Shown: positions 1,419 to 30,144 of the stretch, one piece after another
Position numbering within the stretch: the stretch's first letter is position 1
Layout of the letters: every line of letters starts with the position of its first letter
Origin: a virus
Taxonomy: Duplodnaviria > Heunggongvirae > Uroviricota > Caudoviricetes
IMG/VR virus record: IMGVR_UViG_2851982317_000003
Length of the DNA: 49,084 bases
Strand: one strand, 5' to 3'
Position numbers and translations under genes: made by a program
Notes under the pieces: generated by a model
The model's input: only the letters and a program-made list of their open reading frames with translations
What the model was told of the DNA's origin: nothing
The model's database searches: none

Positions 1419-2489
1419 TTATTTGATTTCAATTTTGTCCCACTCCCTGCCTCTGTCATCACGATACTGTGATGCCATGGTGTCCGACTTATGCCCGAGA
1501 AGATGTTGAGCAAACTTATCGCTTATCTGCTTCTCATAGAGTCTTGCAGACAAACTGCGCAACTCGTGAAAGGTAGGCGGATCCCCTTCGAAGGAAAGAC
1601 CTGATGCTTTTCGTGCGCGCATAAAATACCTTGATACTGTGCCGGATGAAAGCGGTTCACGACGAGTAGATGCAATTATGGTTTCTCCGCCAAGAATCTC
1701 TTTGCATTTATCAAGTGTTTCCTTCATTGATATCCCGAGAGCATCAACATGCAATGTTGTTGGGATGGCAATTTTTACGCCTGTTTTGCTTTGCTCGACA
1801 TAAAGATATCCATCTACGATATCAGACCACTTCATTTCGCATAAATCACCAACTCGTTGCCCGGTAACAACAGCCAGTTCCATTGCAAGTCTGAGCCAAC
1901 ATGGTGATGATTCTGCTGCTTGATAAATTTTCAGGTATTCGTCAGCCGTAAGTCTTGATCTCCTTACCTCTGATTTTGCTGCGCGAGTGGCAGCGACAGG
2001 GTTTGTTGTTATATGGCCTTCAGCTATTGCCTCTCGGAATGCATCGCTCAGTGTTGATCTGATTAACTTGGCTGACGCCGCCTTGCCCTCGTCTATGTAT
2101 CCATTGAGCATTGCCGCAATTTCTTTTGTGGTGATGTCTTCAAGTGGAGCATCAGGCAGCCCCCTCCTTATTGCTTTAATTTTGCTCATGTAATTTATGA
2201 GTGTCTTCTGCTTGATTCCTCTGCTGGCCAGGATTTTTTCGTAGCGATCAAGCCATGAATGTAACGTAACGGAATTATCACTGTTGATTCTCGCTGTCAG
2301 AGGCTTGTGTTTGTGTCCTGAAAATAACTCAATGTTGGCCTGTATGGCTTCAGTGATTGCGATTCGCCTGTCTCTGCCTAATCCAAACTCTTTACCCGTC
2401 CTTGGGTCCCTGTAGCAGTAATATCCATTGTTTCTTATATAAAGGTTAGGGGGTAAATCCCGGCGCTCATGACTTCGCCTTCTTCCCAT
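1419..2489 (-). CDS. int: Lambda integrase (tyrosine recombinase)
   Basis: 356-aa ORF matching lambda Int as recalled (MGRRRSHERRDLPPNLYIRNNGYYCYRDPRTGKEFGLG...); adjacent to attL. Confidence 0.97.
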   Translation of the reverse strand: MGRRRSHERRDLPPNLYIRNNGYYCYRDPRTGKEFGLGRDRRIAITEAIQANIELFSGHKHKPLTARINSDNSVTLHSWLDRYEKILASRGIKQKTLINYMSKIKAIRRGLPDAPLEDITTKEIAAMLNGYIDEGKAASAKLIRSTLSDAFREAIAEGHITTNPVAATRAAKSEVRRSRLTADEYLKIYQAAESSPCWLRLAMELAVVTGQRVGDLCEMKWSDIVDGYLYVEQSKTGVKIAIPTTLHVDALGISMKETLDKCKEILGGETIIASTRREPLSSGTVSRYFMRARKASGLSFEGDPPTFHELRSLSARLYEKQISDKFAQHLLGHKSDTMASQYRDDRGREWDKIEIK

Positions 2490-2685
2490 TTCTGATCCTC
2501 TTCAAAAGGCTACCTGTTACTGGTCGATTTAAGTCAACCTTTACCGCTGATTCGTGGAACAGATATTCTCTTCCATCCTTAACCGGAGGAGGGAATATCC
2601 TGCATTCGCGCACCCATCGACGAACTGTTTCAAGGCTTCTTGGGCGTCGCTGGCGAGCGTTCCACTCCTGAAGTGTCAAGTACAT
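2467..2685 (-). CDS. xis: Excisionase
   Basis: 72-aa ORF (MYLTLQEWNARQRRPRSLETVRRWVRECRIFPPP...) overlapping int start, as in lambda. Confidence 0.95.
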   Translation of the reverse strand: MYLTLQEWNARQRRPRSLETVRRWVRECRIFPPPVKDGREYLFHESAVKVDLNRPVTGSLLKRIRNGKKAKS

Positions 2686-12649: not shown

Positions 12650-13347
12650 AAAACATCGCCGCACAGATGATTAACTTTGACCGTGAGCAGATGCGCCGGA
12701 TCGCCAACAACATGCCGGAACAGTACGACGAAAAGCCGCAGGTACAGCAGGTAGCGCAGATCATCAACGGTGTATTCAGCCAGTTGCTGGCAACTTTCCC
12801 TGCGAGCCTGGCTAACCGTGACCAGAACGAACTGAACGAAATTCGCCGCCAGTGGGTTCTGGCTTTCCGGGAAAACGGGATCACCACAATGGAACAGGTT
12901 AACGCTGGAATGCGCGTAGCCCGTCGGCAGAATCGACCATTCCTGCCATCACCCGGGCAGTTTGTCGCCTGGTGCCGGGAAGAAGCATCCGTTACCGCCG
13001 GGCTGCCAAACGCCAGCGAGCTGGTTGATATGGTTTACGAGTATTGCCGGAAGCGCGGGCTGTATCCGGATGCAGAGTCTTATCCGTGGAAATCAAACGC
13101 GCACTACTGGCTGGTTACCAACCTGTATCAGAACATGCGGGCCAATGCGTTGACTGACTCGGAATTACGGCGCAAGGCTGCCGATGAACTTGCCCATATG
13201 ACTGCGAGAATTAACCGTGGTGAGGCTATACCTGAACCAGTAAAACAACTTCCTGTCATGGGCGGTAGACCTCTAAATCGTGCACAGGCTCTGACGAAGA
13301 TTGCAGAAATCAAAGCTAAGTTCGGACTGAAAGGAGCCAGTGTATGA
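12646..13347 (+). CDS. P: Replication protein P (DnaB helicase loader)
   Basis: 233-aa reading from MKNIAAQMINFDREQMRRIANNMPEQYDEKPQVQQ..., lambda P-like. Confidence 0.95.
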   Translation: MKNIAAQMINFDREQMRRIANNMPEQYDEKPQVQQVAQIINGVFSQLLATFPASLANRDQNELNEIRRQWVLAFRENGITTMEQVNAGMRVARRQNRPFLPSPGQFVAWCREEASVTAGLPNASELVDMVYEYCRKRGLYPDAESYPWKSNAHYWLVTNLYQNMRANALTDSELRRKAADELAHMTARINRGEAIPEPVKQLPVMGGRPLNRAQALTKIAEIKAKFGLKGASV

Positions 13348-13637
13348 CGGGAAAAGAAGCAATTATTCATTACCTGGGGACGCATAAGAGCTTCTGTGCG
13401 CAGGACGTTGCTGCGGTAACAGGCGCAACAGTAACCAGCATAAATCAGGCTGCGGCTAAAATGGCGCGGACAGGAATCTTAGTTATTGATGGTAAGGTCT
13501 GGCGAACGGTGTATTACCGGTTCGCTACCAAGGAAGAACGGGAAGGAAAGGTGAGCACGAATCTGATTTTCAAGGAGTGTCGCCAGAGTGCCGCGATGAA
13601 GCGGGTGTTGGCATTTTATCGCGGCAATTTTCAATAG
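13344..13637 (+). CDS. ren: Ren
   Basis: 97-aa ORF overlapping the P stop (ATGA); lambda Ren-like. Confidence 0.9.
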   Translation: MTGKEAIIHYLGTHKSFCAQDVAAVTGATVTSINQAAAKMARTGILVIDGKVWRTVYYRFATKEEREGKVSTNLIFKECRQSAAMKRVLAFYRGNFQ

Positions 13638-13674
13638 ACTATGTACATAAAAATATCATTTTTTTAATACATGT

Positions 13675-13881
13675 CTAATTATTGGACGAAATTGGTTTTT
13701 GCTTTGGTTTAGTTAGCCTAGCAATCAAGCCAGAGGCAATAATGATGATCCAAGCAATTTGATGCAATGCTACTCCAATATAAGAACCTTTATAGATAAT
13801 AAAGGCATAGATCGCTAGAAACGAAATAAATATCCATAACGAAAGTTGATAAATTTTGGCGCGCATATTTAATCCAATCAA
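13675..13881 (-). CDS. Small hydrophobic two-TM membrane protein (hypothetical)
   Basis: 68-aa ORF in an AT-rich tract; two hydrophobic segments. Confidence 0.35.
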   Translation of the reverse strand: MIGLNMRAKIYQLSLWIFISFLAIYAFIIYKGSYIGVALHQIAWIIIIASGLIARLTKPKQKPISSNN

Positions 13882-14122
13882 TCAGAAAGACGAGTAATCA
13901 TAGAGGTACTATCACCCGGGTAACTATTGCTATTATGAACGGATAGGATAGAGGCTTCAATAACATATGCATCAAGTATGATGGAATATGTAGATGAAAA
14001 TGACTTGTGTCAAATTTGTGGAAATGAGTACCATGTTTCTCTGAAATTGATGTCGTTAATGGCTAGTGATAGTGAACTTTTTTACTTTATAATTCCTTTG
14101 GTTATAACAATAAGGTAAATTT

Positions 14123-14683
14123 ATGAAGAAGATAATATTATTAGCCATGATTATTGGTTCTTTAACAGGTTGCGCTAGTGTGCCACCATTGAATTTTTCA
14201 ACACCTAACGTGGGAGTTAGCCAGAAAAAAATAGATGCTGAAATTAAGTCATTAACGGTATCACTTGCTCGTCCAGATGAGCAGAAAGGGGATATCACTG
14301 CTGGTATGGAGGCTATAACTCCAATTTGGCGTGAATCTTTGCAGGAAGCACTCGACCGAATGACTATTTTTCGTGATAGTTCACCAAATACGGTTAGCTT
14401 AAATGTTAAAGTGTTGGCTCTTGACGTTCCTGCTTTTGGTGTTTCAATGACAACTAAAGCAATTGCAAGGTATGAAATAATCAACCGTGCGAATGGTGAT
14501 ATTATATATACGCAGGATATTGAGTCTACCGGTACTGTTCCAGCCAGTTACGCATTCTACGGTATTGTTCGAGCACGCGAATCTGTTAATCGCGCGGTGC
14601 AAAACAACATAACGCAGTTCTTGCAAGCATTAGAAAGTGTTGATCTTTCTCGTCCAATGTTTCCTGTTAGGGTAGCTAAATGA
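14123..14683 (+). CDS. Lipoprotein of unknown function (signal peptide + lipobox LTGC)
   Basis: 186-aa ORF MKKIILLAMIIGSLTGCAS...; good RBS; in AT-rich accessory DNA after ren. Confidence 0.7.
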   Translation: MKKIILLAMIIGSLTGCASVPPLNFSTPNVGVSQKKIDAEIKSLTVSLARPDEQKGDITAGMEAITPIWRESLQEALDRMTIFRDSSPNTVSLNVKVLALDVPAFGVSMTTKAIARYEIINRANGDIIYTQDIESTGTVPASYAFYGIVRARESVNRAVQNNITQFLQALESVDLSRPMFPVRVAK

Positions 14684-16231: not shown

Positions 16232-16590
16232 ATACTTACCACATCACACTACCCTGGCCTCCGAGCAATAACCGCTATTACCGCCATAATCGCGGGCGCA
16301 CACACATCAGCGCAGAAGGGCAGGCATACCGCGATAACGTCACCCGAATCATTAAAAACGCAATGCTGGATATCGGCCTGGCTATGCCAGTGAAAATCCG
16401 TATTGAGTGCCACATGCCGGATCGCCGTCGCCGTGACCTGGATAATCTGCAAAAGGCCGCTTTTGACGCACTCACCAAAGCAGGTTTCTGGCTGGATGAT
16501 GCTCAGGTCGTTGATTACCGCGTTGTGAAGATGCCTGTTACCAAAGGTGGGAGGCTGGAACTGACCATCACCAAAATGGGGAATGAATGA
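16228..16590 (+). CDS. rusA: RusA Holliday-junction resolvase (GTG start overlapping the ybcO stop)
   Basis: 120-aa reading [37 protein letters not shown]... Confidence 0.9.
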
Positions 16591-16727
16591 TGTTTGAGTC
16601 TTATATGGCAGAGCGTCTTCGCCGCCGCTGGGTGCGCCTGCGCTTATATCGTTTTCCTGGTTCTGTTTTGACCGATTACCGGATACTGAAGAATTACGCC
16701 AAAACCCTGACAGGAGCAGGAGTATGA
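16587..16727 (+). CDS. ylcG: YlcG-like small protein (46 aa), not in the supplied ORF track
   Basis: ATGATG start overlapping the rusA stop; [25 protein letters not shown]... Confidence 0.5.
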
Positions 16728-16812
16728 AGTCAGAGATAACAATCAACTAATACTATTTTGTTGATTTTTGCTTGTAATTGGCGTTCTGGTCTGATTTTTG
16801 TGGAGTAAGTTG

Positions 16813-17196
16813 ATGCGTGATATTCAGATGGTTCTTGAGCGTTGGGGAGCGTGGGCGGCTAATAATCATGAAGATGTGACCTGGTCGTCCATTGCCGCCG
16901 GTTTTAAGGGATTAATTACTTCAAAAGTAAAATCTCGCCCGCAATGTTGTGACGATGACGCGATGATCATTTGCGGGTGCATGGCCCGTCTGAAAAAGAA
17001 CAACAGCGATTTGCACGATTTATTAGTAGATTATTATGTAGTCGGTATGACATTCATGTCACTGGCAGGTAAGCATTGCTGCTCTGATGGTTATATCGGG
17101 AAAAGGTTACAGAAGGCTGAGGGTATAATTGAAGGGATGTTAATGGCATTAGATATCCGGTTAGAGATGGATATCGTTGTTAATAACTCTAATTAA
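16813..17196 (+). CDS. quuD: Late-gene antiterminator Q (DLP12 QuuD / phage-21-82 type)
   Basis: 127-aa reading [33 protein letters not shown]...[16 protein letters not shown]. Confidence 0.85.
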
Positions 17197-17204
17197 TATG
17201 CCAG

Positions 17205-17260
17205 TTGTTTACTAAAAGTTATTAAAAATGGGGCGTTGCAACGCCCCCAAAAATAAAGGG
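17205..17260 (+). promoter_or_regulatory. Candidate pR'/qut region containing a perfect 18-bp palindrome GGGGCGTTGCAACGCCCC (17230-17247)
   Basis: Immediately downstream of Q, where lambdoid phages carry pR' and the Q-utilisation site. Confidence 0.35.
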
Positions 17261-17335
17261 TAATATATAACAGAAGGTTTATATAGTTAGAAGCAAGGTT
17301 GTGCTCCTAAAGGAAGTGGCTTGAGGGAGCCACTT

Positions 17336-17377
17336 ATATGTTGGGGAGGCAAAGCCTCCCGCAACATATCTTTTTCG
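17336..17377 (+). terminator. Strong intrinsic terminator, candidate tR' (15-bp stem ATATGTTGGGGAGGC / GCCTCCC-G-CAACATAT followed by CTTTTT)
   Basis: Long GC-rich hairpin plus T-run about 140 nt downstream of Q, consistent with a short 6S-like late leader. Confidence 0.55.
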
Positions 17378-17385
17378 TAATCAGA

Positions 17386-18468
17386 TTAGAACTGATACAC
17401 CAGACCTACAGCGACGATGTCGTCGGTATCAATACCAGCTGTTTTGGTAAACTTACTATCGTCAATTAAGTTGATTTTGTAATCAACAAAAGTGGACATG
17501 TTTTTATTAAAGTAGTAAGTAGCACCGACATCGACATACTTGACTAAGTCTCGGTCACCATGAACACCAAGGTCTTTACCTTTTGACTGAAGGTAAGCAA
17601 CAGATGGTCGCAGACCGAAGTCAAACTGATATTGTGCTACTGCTTCAAAGTTTTGTGCTTTGTTTGCAATATGGTTATTACCAAAAACGGTCATATTCTG
17701 AGTTTCAGAATATGTGGTAGCCAGATAGATATTGTTCGCATCATATTTCAGGCCTGCAGCCCATACTTCCGCATTTTTGCCGGAGGCATTGAATTTGCTC
17801 TTACCATAGGCGACCTGACCGTCAGTGCGATCTGATTTAGCATAGGTTGCACCCACGCCGAATCCTTCATACTCATAAGTAGTGGAGAAACCGAAACCAT
17901 CACCATTGGCTTCAGTTACGTCAGTGCGGTCATTTTTACCCTGATACTGAGCAGCAAAGTTCAGGCCATCGACCAGACCAAAGAAGTCGTTGTTACGATA
18001 GGTTGCAACACCAGTGGTGCGACCAGTCATGAACACATCTGTTTGGGTCCAGGTATCGCCACCGAATTCTGGCAGAACGTCAGTCCACGCACCGATGTCG
18101 TATGCTACACCGTAGTTACGGCCGTAATCGATTGAGCCGTAGTCACCGAATTTCAGGCCTGCAAATGCAAGACGGGTTTTGTCTTTGGAGGAACCTTGAG
18201 ATTCAGCGCGGTTGCCTTTGAATTCATATTCCCACTGACCGAAACCAGTCAGTTGATCGTTGATTTGGGTTTCACCTTTGAAGCCAAGACGGGCATAAGT
18301 AGTATCACCATCATCTGCATCATTAGAGGAGAAGTAGTGCTTAGCATTAACTTTCCCGTACAGATCCAGCTTGTTACTGTCTTTATTATAAATTTCAGCT
18401 GCCTGAGCAGACATCGCCATCAGTACTGATGCAGCTACAGCAGAAATTGCCACTGTTAATTTTTTCAT
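17386..18468 (-). CDS. nmpC: OmpC-family trimeric porin, phage-borne (Lc / NmpC-like lysogenic-conversion gene)
   Basis: 360-aa ORF with signal peptide ([23 protein letters not shown]), AEIYNKD...C-terminal VYQF; between Q and holin in opposite orientation. Confidence 0.9.
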
Positions 18469-18896
18469 CGTGAGCCCTTTTTTTTGAACTATTATTAAAA
18501 AATGATGTCACTGCGCGATAAATATTCATCTAATCAATGTGATTATTTCAAGATGTAAGTTTTGGTTTCTCGTTTGATTTGTGAAGTAGATCTCTATTTT
18601 TATCTGAACTTTTTTCTATCGAATCCTATTCATGGCTCTTGGCTGAATAAAAATAAATCTATTAGCCAATTTATATTAACGGCTATTATTTATAAGTGCT
18701 CTATAATTTGAAGGTTCAATTTAAACCAGCTAAAAATAACACTGGAAATTATTTGTTGGTTATTTGTTGAGATTTGCTTATGTATTTGTAGTGGTGTTTT
18801 CAATACTCGGTAGCATTCTCGCAAATATCATTTAGTGGTTTACGTACGTAAAAAATTGGTTATGCTGTTAAGAGTGGTTACTTCGTCACACAGCTT

Positions 18897-18921
18897 AAAC
18901 CCGCCGTCGAGCGGGTTTTTC
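18897..18921 (+). terminator. Candidate intrinsic terminator upstream of the holin (CCCGC-CGTCGA-GCGGG + TTTTT)
   Basis: GC hairpin followed by a T-run in the long AT-rich intergenic region. Confidence 0.4.
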
Positions 18922-19057
18922 CATTTTTTGAGTCTCGATATTAGCTGATAACCCAATACCTGAGTTATTCACTGACTCCGAGTCTGTTACGTTTCTGCTT
19001 TTTTGCGATACGTTGTATTCCCTCAATTTACACCCGCTTTGTCTGCGAGGTGGGGTT

Positions 19058-19273
19058 ATGAAATCCATGGATAAGTTAACAACGGGTGTCGCCTATGGCA
19101 CCTCAGCAGGTAGTGCCGGGTACTGGTTTTTACAGCTGCTAGATAAAGTCACGCCCTCACAGTGGGCGGCAATTGGAGTGCTGGGTAGCCTGGTATTTGG
19201 CCTGCTGACGTACCTGACAAACCTTTATTTCAAGATTAAAGAAGACAAGCGTAAGGCTGCACGGGGAGAGTAA
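19058..19273 (+). CDS. essD: Class II holin / pinholin (S21-like) with dual-start MKSM motif; ORF-track start 19013 is upstream
   Basis: 71-aa reading [31 protein letters not shown]...; two TM segments. Confidence 0.9.
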
Positions 19274-19277
19274 TTCA

Positions 19278-19622
19278 ATGACTCAAAACTATGAACTGAT
19301 TGTGAAAGGGATCCGCAATTTTGAGAATAAAGTTACGGTAACTTTAGCGTTACGGGACAAAAAACGCTTTGACGGTGAAATTTTTGACCTAGACATCTCG
19401 CTGGACCGTGTTGAAGGTGCCGCGCTGGAGTTTTATGAGGCAGCAGCCAGAAGGAGCATCAGACAGGTCTTCCTGGATGTTGCTGCCGGGTTATGTGAAG
19501 GGGATGAGCTGTCGCCGGAAAAGCGCCCCATAATTTTAGAGGCGCAGAATGTGTGGATAACCTACAAAGGAAAGCTACCGGGAAGAATTACTGGTTCTCT
19601 GAAGACTCCGCCGAAATGGTAA
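19278..19622 (+). CDS. Hypothetical soluble protein inserted between holin and endolysin
   Basis: 114-aa ORF with GGGGAGAG RBS just after the holin stop; no recognisable motif. Confidence 0.5.
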   Translation: MTQNYELIVKGIRNFENKVTVTLALRDKKRFDGEIFDLDISLDRVEGAALEFYEAAARRSIRQVFLDVAAGLCEGDELSPEKRPIILEAQNVWITYKGKLPGRITGSLKTPPKW

Positions 19623-19860
19623 TTTCACCAGCATATTTTTCTTCCAGTAATACCGCCAGCCACTTGAAAGAATTTTGTTGTTGCTGGGACCATTTGGGGT
19701 TGAGTGATTCAAGCTGGAGCGATGCCAGTGTTGGTTGCATTTGTTCCTTGGGAATTGAGAATGCCAGATATGAAAATGCGACAGTAAGGGCATTTACATC
19801 ATCCCGAAGCCTGGAAATGCAGTCGAGCAACTCCTGTAGAGAAATGGTGCTATTGTCCAT
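19588..19860 (-). CDS. Hypothetical protein, convergent with and overlapping the 3' end of the preceding ORF by about 35 bp
   Basis: 90-aa reading from MDNSTISLQELL... with GAGAGG RBS. Confidence 0.4.
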   Translation of the reverse strand: MDNSTISLQELLDCISRLRDDVNALTVAFSYLAFSIPKEQMQPTLASLQLESLNPKWSQQQQNSFKWLAVLLEEKYAGEITISAESSENQ

Positions 19861-19965
19861 AAACAATCCTCTCTATTGTATTTAACTATTCCTTGCCTGA
19901 TTCAACAGGCCGGGACAGATAAACATATCCAGGGTTCAGAAACCGATAAATCCTGATAAATATCC

Positions 19966-20499
19966 ATGAACGCAAAAATCAGATACGGCCTGTCGGCTGC
20001 CGTTCTGGCACTGATTGCCGTCGGTGCGCCTGCGCCTGATATTCTCGACCAGTTTCTGGATGAAAAAGAAGGTAACCACACAACGGCATACCGCGATGGT
20101 TCCGGCATCTGGACCATCTGTCGGGGTGCCACGGTGGTGGATGGAAAACCCGTTTTTCCCGGTATGAAACTGTCGAAGGAAAAATGCGACCAGGTTAACG
20201 CCATTGAACGGGATAAGGCGCTGGCATGGGTGGAGCGCAATATTAAAGTGCCACTGACCGAACCACAGAAAGCGGGTATCGCGTCATTTTGTCCCTATAA
20301 CATTGGCCCCGGTAAGTGTTTCCCGTCGACGTTTTATAAGCGGCTGAATGCCGGTGATCGTAAAGGTGCATGCGAGGCGATTCGCTGGTGGATAAAAGAT
20401 GGTGGGCGCGATTGCCGCATACGTTCAAATAACTGCTATGGACAGGTTATTCGTCGTGACCAGGAAAGCGCATTAGCCTGTTGGGGGATAGATCAGTGA
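19966..20499 (+). CDS. SAR-endolysin (T4-lysozyme-like GH24 muramidase with N-terminal signal-anchor-release domain)
   Basis: 177-aa ORF; hydrophobic N-terminus ([18 protein letters not shown]) and E-x8-D-x5-T catalytic triad ([16 protein letters not shown]). Confidence 0.9.
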
Positions 20500-21748: not shown

Positions 21749-22426
21749 ATGTCCATCATTTTTAATGGACACTATCGTATGAAACACCGGACCTGGATCA
21801 CTGAAGCTTTACGTCTTCACTTTGAAGAACATTTACCCCGGGTTGTGGCCGGGCGTCGCCTGGGTGTACCAAAATCAACAGTTTGTAGTATGTTCGTGCG
21901 CTTTCGGAGAGCTGGCCTTTCGTGGCCTTTGCCCGCAGGCATGTCGGAGCAGGAACTTGATGCCTGCCTTTACGGACAATTTTCCACGGTACCAGTCGTA
22001 CGTCCTGAAAGCACCGTTATATCCGAAGCCCCCGTGGTAAAAAAACGTCCCCGGCGGCCCAACTTCCCTTATGAGTTTAAAATCGCCTTAGTGGAGCAGT
22101 CACTGCAGCCCGGAGCCTGTGTGGCGCAGATCGCCCGGGAAAACGGAATCAACGATAACCTGCTCTTCAACTGGCGCCATCAATACCGGAAAGGTGGCCT
22201 GCTGCCTTCCGGAAAAAATATGCCGGCACTGCTTCCCGTGACGTTAACGCCGGAGCCGGATAATAAAATCCCGGCCCCCGCACAGGAACCAGAGCAGATA
22301 AATACACCGTCCGACAGTCTGTGTTGTGAGCTGGTTCTGCCGGCCGGAACTCTCAGGCTTAAAGGTAAACTGACGCCGGCGTTATTACAGACACTTATCC
22401 GCGAAATAAAAGGGAGCAGCCACTGA
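21749..22426 (+). CDS. IS66-family accessory protein TnpA (orfA); start uncertain
   Basis: Contains the PRRPNFPYEFKIALVEQSLQPGACVAQIARENGINDNLLFNWRHQYRKG motif. Confidence 0.7.
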   Translation: MSIIFNGHYRMKHRTWITEALRLHFEEHLPRVVAGRRLGVPKSTVCSMFVRFRRAGLSWPLPAGMSEQELDACLYGQFSTVPVVRPESTVISEAPVVKKRPRRPNFPYEFKIALVEQSLQPGACVAQIARENGINDNLLFNWRHQYRKGGLLPSGKNMPALLPVTLTPEPDNKIPAPAQEPEQINTPSDSLCCELVLPAGTLRLKGKLTPALLQTLIREIKGSSH

Positions 22427-22773
22427 TGATATCTCTCCCTGCAGGTTCGCGTATCTGGCTGGTTGCAGGTATCACCGATATGCGAAATGGCTTTAACGGC
22501 CTGGCATCAAAAGTTCAGAACGTCCTGAAGGATGACCCGTTCTCCGGACACCTGTTCATCTTCCGCGGACGCCGGGGTGACCAGATAAAAGTGTTGTGGG
22601 CTGACAGTGACGGACTGTGCCTCTTCACCAAACGCCTGGAGCGGGGCCGCTTCGTCTGGCCAGTCACCCGTGACGGCAAGGTGCACCTTACTCCGGCTCA
22701 GTTATCCATGCTTCTTGAAGGTATCAACTGGAAGCACCCGAAACGAACGGAACGCGCTGGAATCCGCATATAA
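22426..22773 (+). CDS. IS66-family TnpB (orfB)
   Basis: 115-aa ORF MISLPAGSRIWLVAGITDMRNGFNGLASKV..., start overlapping the orfA stop. Confidence 0.85.
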   Translation: MISLPAGSRIWLVAGITDMRNGFNGLASKVQNVLKDDPFSGHLFIFRGRRGDQIKVLWADSDGLCLFTKRLERGRFVWPVTRDGKVHLTPAQLSMLLEGINWKHPKRTERAGIRI

Positions 22774-22792
22774 CCCGTTGTAAAGTGAGGAT

Positions 22793-24364
22793 ATGGACAC
22801 CTCACTTGCTCATGAGAACGCCCGCCTGCGGGCACTGTTGCAGACGCAACAGGACACCATCCGCCAGATGGCTGAATACAACCGCCTGCTCTCACAGCGG
22901 GTGGCGGCTTATGCTTCCGAAATCAACCGGCTGAAGGCGCTGGTTGCGAAACTGCAACGTATGCAGTTCGGTAAAAGCTCAGAAAAACTTCGTGCAAAAA
23001 CCGAACGGCAGATACAGGAAGCACAGGAGCGAATCAGCGCACTTCAGGAAGAAATGGCGGAAACGCTGGGTGAGCAATATGACCCGGTACTGCCATCCGC
23101 CCTGCGCCAGTCTTCAGCCCGTAAACCGTTACCGGCCTCACTTCCCCGTGAAACCCGGGTTATCCGGCCGGAAGAGGAATGCTGTCCTGCCTGTGGTGGT
23201 GAACTCAGTTCTCTGGGATGTGATGTGTCAGAGCAACTGGAGCTTATCAGCAGCGCCTTTAAGGTTATTGAAACACAACGTCCGAAACAGGCCTGTTGCC
23301 GGTGCGACCATATCGTGCAGGCACCAGTACCTTCAAAACCCATTGCACGCAGTTATGCCGGAGCGGGGCTTCTGGCCCATGTTGTCACCGGGAAATATGC
23401 AGACCATCTGCCGTTATACCGCCAGTCAGAAATATACCGTCGTCAGGGAGTGGAGCTGAGCCGTGCCACACTGGGGCGCTGGACAGGTGCTGTTGCTGAA
23501 CTGCTGGAGCCGCTGTATGACGTCCTGCGCCAGTATGTGCTGATGCCCGGTAAAGTCCATGCTGATGATATCCCCGTCCCGGTCCAGGAGCCGGGCAGCG
23601 GTAAAACCCGGACAGCCCGGCTGTGGGTCTACGTCCGTGATGACCGTAACGCCGGTTCACAGATGCCCCCGGCGGTCTGGTTCGCGTACAGTCCGGACCG
23701 GAAAGGTATCCATCCACAAAATCACCTGGCCGGTTACAGCGGTGTGCTTCAGGCCGATGCTTACGGTGGTTACCGGGCGTTATACGAATCCGGCAGAATA
23801 ACGGAAGCCGCGTGTATGGCTCATGCCCGGAGAAAAATCCACGATGTGCATGCAAGAGCGCCCACCTACATCACCACGGAAGCCCTGCAGCGTATCGGTG
23901 AACTGTATGCCATCGAGGCAGAGGTCCGGGGCTGTTCAGCAGAACAGCGTCTGGCGGCAAGAAAAGCCAGAGCCGCGCCACTGATGCAGTCACTGTATGA
24001 CTGGATACAGCAACAGATGAAAACACTGTCGCGTCACTCAGATACGGCAAAAGCGTTCGCATACCTGCTGAAACAGTGGGATGCACTGAACGTGTACTGC
24101 AGTAATGGCTGGGTGGAAATCGACAACAACATCGCAGAGAACGCCTTACGGGGAGTGGCCGTAGGCCGGAAAAACTGGATGTTCGCGGGTTCCGACAGCG
24201 GTGGTGAACATGCGGCGGTGTTGTACTCGCTGATCGGCACATGCCGTCTGAACAATGTGGAGCCAGAAAAGTGGCTGCGTTACGTCATTGAACATATCCA
24301 GGACTGGCCGGCAAACCGGGTACGCGATCTGTTGCCCTGGAAAGTTGATCTGAGCTCTCAGTAA
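22793..24364 (+). CDS. IS66-family transposase TnpC (leucine zipper, zinc finger, DDE domain)
   Basis: 523-aa ORF with CPACGG...CxxC zinc-finger and DDE region. Confidence 0.9.

Positions 24365-26443: not shown

Positions 26444-30124
<3,681 letters not shown>

Positions 30125-30144
<20 letters not shown>

Follow-up and report, generated by a model that had tools for sequence, protein, structure and literature searches.

A complete porin gene lies between the late-gene antiterminator gene Q and the lysis genes of a lambdoid prophage, and the DNA that separates it from the holin gene contains a terminator hairpin. This locus raises the question of what kind of porin the phage carries, and of whether the upstream DNA with its hairpin serves the porin gene or the late operon. 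We addressed this question for a window of 49,084 nt, i.e. the whole stretch of viral DNA that was analysed. As an overall explanation, the locus very probably represents an intact nmpC/lc moron with its own CRP-aided promoter, located between Q and a late switch composed of a pR′-type promoter and a terminator. The coordinates of the features are compiled in Table 1.

Table 1. Features of the Q–porin–holin region, in window positions, and the evidence on which each of them is based.
Feature	Position	Strand	Basis
Late-gene antiterminator Q, quuD type	16813-17196	+	Pfam Phage_antitermQ, E=4e-53
GC-rich hairpin GGGGCGTTGCAACGCCCC, followed by ATTTTTAATA	17230-17247	minus	terminator scan
Pair of stable hairpins in tandem (17314-17335, 17336-17369), immediately 3′ of the porin stop codon	17314-17377	both	fold
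Porin CDS, 360 aa, NmpC/Lc-family allele	17386-18468	minus	ORF, Pfam, NCBIfam, structure match
Porin 5′-UTR, putative core promoter PnmpC, proximal CRP site	18469-18600	minus	homology to K-12, PA-2
AT-rich spacer between the divergent promoters (GC 0.29)	18601-18836		least conserved part of the gap
Predicted late promoter, pR′-type (TTTACG, 16 nt, TATGCT)	18839-18866	+	homology to phi345 ‘Promoter’
Candidate extended -10-like sigma70 pause element TGgTTACTT	18875-18883	+	position and form
Predicted leader terminator hairpin with T-run (stem 18897-18918)	18897-18930	+	terminator scan, fold, homology
Holin essD, S21 type, first late-operon gene	19058-19273	+	Pfam Phage_holin_2_1, E=2e-35

The porin gene is an intact nmpC/lc allele, i.e. 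an ordinary porin of lambdoid prophages. This family has been known since the 1980s, with Lc of phage PA-2 and NmpC of DLP12 as its namesakes, and both proteins have been described as trimeric diffusion channels in the outer membrane. The ORF starts with ATG and contains no frameshift, internal stop or insertion. Pfam Porin_1 covers residues 29-360, i.e. positions 1-337 of the 337 profile positions (E=1.9e-151), and the best solved-structure match is to OmpC structures, which align with residues 24-360 (E=5.8e-137). Residues 1-23 (nt 18400-18468) form a signal peptide that ends with AQA before AE and matches the annotated signal peptide of PA-2 lc exactly. The C-terminus, GLVYQF, is the usual outer-membrane-protein motif with an aromatic last residue, and the loop-3 motif PEFGG is present, as it is invariably among the compared relatives.

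For the assignment to a family, several NCBIfam porin models were compared. The generic OmpC subfamily model was the only one whose cutoff was passed (521 bits, cutoff 484), while the scores for the PhoE and OmpF equivalogs were below the respective cutoffs (504 vs 599 and 482 vs 583). In a large protein collection, the nearest proteins bear the names NmpC or LC, with identities of 91-92%; OmpD of Salmonella is ~79-81% identical, and the DNA identity of the porin CDS to K-12 ompC is 66%. These values place the porin (RefSeq protein WP_000737271.1), as judged from its sequence, in the NmpC/Lc/OmpD clade. From synteny together with flank and protein identities it follows that the PGAP label ‘porin OmpC’ is generic and that the gene is an allele of nmpC/lc.

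The porin is embedded in the gene order ybcN-ninE-ybcO-rusA-ylcG-quuD-porin-essD. Q, which is named quuD in the identical RefSeq record, is related to the Q group of phage 82 and the Stx phages; it shares 78% of its amino acids with Stx-phage Q and has a distant match only (E=7e-7) to the solved Q21 structure. The holin has a dual start (MKSM...), as the 434B record also gives in its annotation, with dual starts for antiholin and holin. Downstream of the holin, Pfam identified a DUF1327/YdfR protein, a lysozyme and an Rz protein. The porin has the opposite orientation to Q upstream and to the holin downstream, and its flanks are 96-100% identical to those in DLP12 and PA-2.

Much of what the earlier note had read from this part of the locus was recovered. 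It had described a complete 360-aa porin with signal peptide, and the uninterrupted ORF, the end-to-end Porin_1 match and the 23 N-terminal residues shared with Lc agree with this. The slot between Q and the lysis genes is, as it had claimed, the same in place and orientation as those of nmpC in DLP12 and lc in PA-2, and the porin, encoded on the minus strand, indeed runs against the late operon, with Q and the holin on the plus strand. Its designation as an OmpC-family porin holds insofar as the OmpC subfamily model is passed, but the name does not describe the clade.

For comparison, we considered the known systems one by one. Gene order and orientation are the same in DLP12 of K-12, but nmpC (b0553) is a pseudogene split by IS5 there, while the copy in the window is intact. 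In addition, ~17 nt of the late leader are missing in DLP12 relative to the window, and the window has a YdfR gene and a reverse ORF between holin and endolysin. An intact NmpC-like protein, P0008, comprises 365 aa as compared with 360 in the window and is ~92% identical, with divergence in the C-terminal 200 residues. PA-2 Lc (protein 2, J02580) occupies the same slot by the lysis genes with the same layout; identities are 355/370 in the porin upstream DNA (96%, including the proximal CRP site), 215/219 in the late leader and 183/189 in the 3′ spacer. Perceval of strain LF82 (OV696612) has the same Q–porin–S arrangement and encodes a porin that is 100% identical to the window protein. Perceval has been described as one of five complete LF82 prophages, while the prophage in the window is marked by IS elements and by a disrupted portal gene. 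OmpD of Salmonella enterica belongs to the same porin clade, but it is chromosomal and not located between a prophage Q and S; relative to the window porin, five residues are inserted in its loop assigned L6, and regulation by small RNAs is documented for ompD. OmpC of E. coli shares the fold, the family and the PEFGG motif, but has an 11-residue insertion in loop 4 that is missing from the window porin. Unlike chromosomal OmpC, the window porin is not divergent from micF.

The distance from the porin ATG to the holin ATG is 589 bp. The earlier note had described ~540 bp of AT-rich DNA with a plus-strand terminator hairpin at 18897-18921, and had treated all of it as the upstream region of the porin. 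The hairpin was recovered by the terminator scan, and the AT-richness holds for 18469-18836 (GC 0.29-0.30), while the GC content rises to 0.42-0.45 over 18837-19057 and the length was stated too short. The gap is bipartite: two conserved islands, one with the porin promoter and CRP site and the other with pR′ and the leader, flank a variable middle. The identities between the window and Perceval are 94.7% for the porin promoter island, 85.6% for the AT-rich middle and 98.6% for the pR′–leader island. No conserved ORF and no Rfam family was found in the spacer. An Rfam search of 16500-20000 with a permissive threshold returned a Trp-leader match only (20.8 bits vs a gathering threshold of 41, E=0.67), which was rejected because it is sub-threshold and merely recognises the terminator hairpin. 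Small ORFs of 49 aa on the plus strand and of 44 and 57 aa on the minus strand are present in the gap, in promoter and leader DNA.

The terminator scan of the 3-kb region found four sites vs 2.7 expected, so as a bare pattern the hairpin is unremarkable; it is meaningful because it is conserved and homologous to an annotated ‘Terminator’ of Stx phages. It consists of an 8-bp stem followed by TTCCATTTTT. A comparison of the gap with phage genomes showed that 18838-18920 is 77-78% identical to DNA at the end of Q in hundreds of Stx phages, and in Stx phage phi345 the homologous stretch is annotated as ‘Promoter’ and ‘Terminator’ directly after Q. In the alignment with phi345, the late promoter of Table 1 falls on the annotated promoter base for base, the initial transcribed block AAGAGTGGTTAC is conserved and the hairpin falls on the first terminator. 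Over 18837-18982, the identity to the window is 100% for K-12 DLP12 and 98.6% for Perceval, in contrast to the adjoining DNA, which varies by 14%; the pR′ promoter and the leader hairpin are invariant in both. A pattern of 43 nt comprising promoter and leader occurs once in the window, with 0 expected. Homology and pattern together predict a constitutive promoter with a close intrinsic terminator upstream of the lysis genes. By this sequence evidence, the hairpin belongs to the late-gene switch, as the first leader terminator ~30 nt past a pR′-type promoter. Because it lies as a leader terminator behind that promoter, only ~370 of the 589 bp are porin upstream DNA and the remainder is late promoter and leader, contrary to the reading of the whole gap as one porin upstream region.

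Could the hairpin nevertheless serve the porin locus, be it as an insulator or roadblock for the porin promoter or as part of a distal CRP operator? It lies in the divergent region, at a distance of ~430 bp from the porin ATG on its upstream side, and the PA-2 record J02580 of 1986 annotates a CRP site beside it, at the equivalent of 18873-18893. However, in Stx phages, which entirely lack a porin there, the same promoter–leader–hairpin block follows Q immediately, and the T-run is present on the plus strand only. The match of the distal operator to the CRP consensus, counted by hand, is 7/10 in the window and ~5/10 in an Stx phage, i.e. below the scan threshold of 8/10. We thus regard a role of the hairpin in the porin locus as quite improbable, and retain the assignment to the late switch. 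Since the distal block is also conserved in the porin-less Stx phages, we think that its conservation reflects the late switch rather than CRP.

The candidate pause element overlaps this annotated distal CRP site. In phage 82, the pR′ pause element is a -10-like sequence with an extended -10 and leads to a pause at +25 (PMC5001585). The hexamer of the element TGgTTACTT matches TATAAT at 3/6 positions, and its position and form fit the phage 82 element, the comparison being one with the published description only. We infer that it is a candidate for the promoter-proximal pause, which would be the site of Q loading.

In Stx phages, the pR′ transcript has a length of 258 nt (Sy et al., PMC7547250). 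The start implied by the Stx-phage promoter is ~257 nt from the second Stx-phage terminator, in agreement with this length. The window lacks a counterpart of the second terminator as well as of the StxS-yielding 3′ part of the leader: a second terminator was not found in 18922-19057 by terminator scan and fold, and a search for the functional 3′ part of StxS across the window gave chance matches only (E>4). Because no second terminator precedes the holin, the hairpin is taken as the equivalent of tR′ and would act as the sole terminator of the leader. As a separate observation, the first hairpin may be leaky, since the homologous 258-nt pR′ transcript of Stx phages reaches the second terminator. 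Two more speculative roles appear very unlikely. A constitutive pR′ RNA of ~50 nt ended by the hairpin might serve, like StxS, as a small regulatory RNA in trans, or the weak CRP-like sequence at the pause could make Q loading as well as the divergent porin promoter responsive to the catabolite state.

On the Q side of the porin, the homology to the Q–pR′ unit of Stx phages extends up to 17145; beyond the porin it sets in again at 18838. Promoter and 3′ end of Q overlap in Stx phages, while in the window 1.7 kb with the porin lie between them. Because the homology breaks and resumes at these positions, the porin would be part of a cassette of ~1.7 kb (~17146-18837) that has been inserted between the Q gene and the site of action of Q and so lies outside the late operon. 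The spacer between Q and the porin, including the hairpin at 17230-17247, is 93-100% conserved in all 36 of the 36 porin-carrying phage records, and in phage records it occurs together with the porin only (36/36), which argues that it is part of the cassette as well.

These observations bear on another arrangement, in which the late promoter follows Q directly, as in lambda, so that late transcription would run antisense through the porin gene and shut it off upon induction. Such an arrangement has a precedent in lambda and in the Stx phages, in which pR′ abuts or overlaps the end of Q, and the hairpins in the Q–porin spacer could be read as tR′. However, the Stx-phage homology is interrupted after Q and is taken up again only beyond the porin, the scan found no sigma70-like promoter on the plus strand in 17197-17385, and the spacer in question belongs to the cassette by its distribution. 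A late promoter next to Q is therefore extremely improbable, and the promoter at 18839-18866 is retained as the start of late transcription.

The hairpin at 17230-17247, which is followed by a T-run on the minus strand, is a possible distal terminator of the porin transcript. The two tandem hairpins adjacent to the porin stop fold with z-scores of -4.4 on the plus strand and -6.7 on the minus strand, and 0/200 shuffled sequences fold as well as the native one. The second of the two is followed by CTTTTTCG on the plus strand. This segment is likely to be a two-way terminator zone between read-through from Q and the convergent porin transcript.

We next turn to the promoter of the porin gene itself. 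Over 18469-18600, 130/132 positions are identical to K-12 DLP12 (98.5%) and 125/132 to Perceval. A CRP-like site, TGTGAAGTAGATCTCT at 18580-18595, has an 8/10 match with 0.29 expected by chance; it is the sole strong CRP-like sequence in the gap at a threshold of 8/10, and its position is that of the proximal CRP site in the annotation of PA-2 J02580. In K-12, PnmpC has been reported as an active sigma70 promoter within -199 to -1 of nmpC, with a start mapped by 5′RACE at a G and with activation by Crp through two operators (PMC11677980). With this geometry, the core promoter in the window would be TTGAAA (18551-18546), a spacing of 18 nt and GAATAT ending at 18522, with a start at a G at ~18516, and such a start would centre the CRP site at about -71.5. 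The hexamers are weak (8/12), and a relaxed scan yielded six weak candidates on the minus strand, several of them equally weak. A generic sigma70 scan of the region was not enriched (three sites vs 7.0 expected). Because the scan was not enriched and the relaxed candidates are weak, the assignment of PnmpC rests on literature and geometry rather than on the scan, and the exact hexamers, the start and the dependence on CRP in this strain are given as putative.

A BLAST comparison with chromosomal ompC revealed no homology upstream of the porin CDS, and a derivation of the porin regulatory DNA from chromosomal ompC was rejected for this reason. A presumed likeness of 18537-18556 to an OmpR box of ompC could not be substantiated and was dropped.

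An intact gene may still be a silent one, like the quiescent nmpC of laboratory K-12 and B strains, either by nucleoid proteins on the upstream DNA of 29% GC or by repression through OmpR, IHF or MprA. The reported absence of nmpC expression in many E. coli strains (PMC3333887), the reported repression of PnmpC by these three regulators (PMC11677980), the very AT-rich upstream DNA and the decay of the host prophage are all compatible with silence. However, the silence in K-12 has been attributed to an insertion element (PMC3333887), and there is no IS in the gene in the window. Even the IS-interrupted K-12 gene is still transcribed from PnmpC (PMC11677980), and core promoter and CRP site in the window are nearly the same as in K-12. 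Moreover, the Perceval porin gene is listed among prophage morons and transcribed ~10-fold above the local background in the LF82 lysogen (PMC9928086). Because the Perceval protein is identical, the porin is a published moron expressed in lysogeny, and a silent gene in the window is unlikely. This indirectly supports the earlier note, which had read the region as a lysogenic-conversion locus. Further reports on regulation concern CFT073, in which nmpC homologues are elevated at 37 °C at both the RNA and the protein level (PMC12890032), and RybB, for which the nmpC mRNA is a target in E. coli (PMC3333887).

The allele was then compared with lc along its length. The first 480 nt are at least 99.6% identical, nt 481-1098 have identities of 53-83% per 60-nt block and two indels, and the 3′ flank is back to 97%; such a pattern is the signature of mosaicism by recombination. 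In the protein, residues 161-360 contain 27 of the 29 substitutions relative to Lc as well as both indels, while residues 1-160, including PEFGG, are essentially invariant. An AlphaFold model of the porin is of moderate quality overall, with a mean pLDDT of 69.8; over residues 180-360 the means of 10-residue blocks are 66-89, mostly >80, which suffices for placing the variable segments there. The strands of the model alternate, and their long connections (177-190, 214-231, 299-305 and 334-350) are separated by short turns. The loop-3 region (132-166) was modelled with a pLDDT below 50, which is too weak for reading the constriction loop. The variable clusters (182-187, 216-227, 263-267, 303-306 and 335-347) coincide with every second inter-strand connection of the model. 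By the standard topology of porins, the long connections are external loops. The clusters would thus correspond to the predicted surface loops L4-L8. Substitutions are enriched outside of strands (22/150 positions vs 7/187, Fisher p=6e-4). From the invariance of residues 1-160 and the clustering of substitutions in loops, it follows that the pore is likely conserved and that the exposed surface differs from that of Lc.

Taken together, these elements suggest the following mode of operation. The product would be a general-diffusion, 16-stranded trimeric outer-membrane porin. In the lysogen, its gene would be read leftward from a sigma70 promoter of its own, PnmpC, which would lie no more than ~130 bp from the ATG; CRP at 18580-18595 would aid this transcription, which would be independent of phage induction. 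After export via the 23-residue signal peptide, the porin with its own surface loops would join the outer membrane, and this addition would change both the permeability and the set of surface receptors. On the late side, RNA polymerase starting at pR′ would synthesize ~50 nt and stop at the hairpin unless Q is present. Q loaded at the promoter-proximal pause would allow read-through into the genes for holin, endolysin and Rz. Since pR′ lies beyond the porin, late transcription would start downstream of it and never cross it. The porin and the late operon would be divergent, with starts ~350 bp apart, so that only early-operon read-through past Q could cross the porin gene, with the hairpin zone at 17314-17377 in its way.

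The locus is widespread. Of 5,426 complete E. coli genomes, 2,502 contain at least 80% of the porin gene; 627 records match the allele with an identity of at least 99%, and 35 phage records have most of the Q–porin–S block. E. coli O25:H16 F5505-C1 and several other strains have the 3-kb Q–porin–holin block in their chromosomes with an identity of 100%. In F5505-C1, it is part of a lambda-like prophage adjoining ybhC that has an integrase, bet/exo/gam, replication genes, a nin region and lambda-type head and tail genes. This prophage also carries an IS3 element and, between its lysis and packaging genes, ISCro1 of the IS66 family. Its portal gene is interrupted by an internal stop, and the window accordingly has two ORFs in the same frame (28543-28887 and 28948-30144) in place of one portal gene. 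The host prophage is probably defective and decaying, as far as its gene content indicates, with the porin module untouched.

The locus as such is already known, and the gene occurs in nearly half of the complete E. coli genomes. The refinements described here, i.e. the hairpin as a leader terminator, the cassette between Q and pR′, the bipartite gap, the loop mosaic and the decaying prophage, all fit known biology, and these anatomical by-products open no new question. One of them concerns the ‘distal CRP site’ that was annotated for PA-2 in 1986 and that falls on the pause region of the late promoter. The location of the cassette between Q and pR′ would insulate the porin from late transcription. 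That the allele differs from Lc almost solely in predicted surface loops is what a shuffling of its exposed half by recombination would be expected to produce. Prophage porins alter the permeability and antigenicity of the outer membrane and its receptors for phages, colicins and contact-dependent toxins. Although the importance of the locus is modest, it is worthwhile to annotate an intact allele from a clinical lineage as NmpC/Lc-type and not as ‘OmpC’.

Comparison of the porin coding sequence with lc, the porin gene of phage PA-2, revealed a sharp boundary at about nt 480, where the identity falls from at least 99.6% to 53-83%. The diverged part comprises the 3′ ~600 nt of the gene (17386-17990), and directly after the stop codon the identity is back to 97%. 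The sharp drop together with the recovery implies that the gene is a mosaic, in which the half encoding the surface loops was replaced by recombination.

A stretch of about 17 nt in the late leader (~18995-19011, around CTGCTTTTTTGCGATA) is common to the window, PA-2, and Perceval, the LF82 prophage that encodes an identical porin protein, whereas DLP12 of K-12 and the part of phage 434B that derives from DLP12 both have it deleted. The “distal CRP site” of the 1986 PA-2 lc record (J02580, 1067-1087) corresponds to window positions 18873-18893. These positions belong to the late promoter's initial transcribed region, and the annotated site shares part of its sequence with the putative sigma70 pause element. 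The site agrees with the CRP consensus at no more than 7/10 positions, and Stx phages lacking the porin have conserved this block as well. Further downstream, a stem-loop (19033-19066; CCCGCUUUG...CGAGGUGGG) covers the ribosome-binding site of the holin gene, just 5′ of the dual-start motif MKSM. It is similar to the antiholin/holin start control that is annotated for the same holin gene in phage 434B.

Judging from the IS3 element, the IS66-family element, and the split portal gene, the prophage that carries the porin looks defective.

Positions of accessory genes, insertion elements, and portal gene pieces (window coordinates unless a phage is named)
Feature	Position	Strand	Remarks
IS3 element	within 13048-14210		nin region
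Two overlapping ORFs, 186 aa and 150 aa	14123-15132	+	lipoprotein-like N-termini; adjoin the IS3 element
DUF1327/YdfR gene	19278-19622	+	between holin and endolysin
92-aa ORF	19588-19866	-	between holin and endolysin; hypothetical protein in RefSeq
IS66-family element ISCro1 (tnpA, tnpB, transposase)	within 21749-24364		between Rz/KilA-N genes and packaging genes
Portal gene, two pieces	28543-28887 and 28948-30144		common frame, in-frame stop between the ORFs
LpxR-type outer-membrane lipid A deacylase gene	phage 434B (OL657227), 1594-2553	-	beside a lambda-Q fragment

The holin gene essD directly adjoins the lysozyme gene in DLP12 of K-12. In contrast, the lysis cassette of the window is broken up at 19278-19866 by the YdfR gene and the reverse-strand ORF, which may represent a second small moron; a Pfam search gave no match for the 92-aa ORF. 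The overlapping ORF pair has a low GC content at its start (0.31-0.42), and its second ORF contains a weak glycine-zipper match, under the Pfam cutoff. This pair may be a further, envelope-directed moron in the nin region. The LpxR-type gene of phage 434B is another outer-membrane moron, located in the same general Q-region slot as the porin gene of the window.
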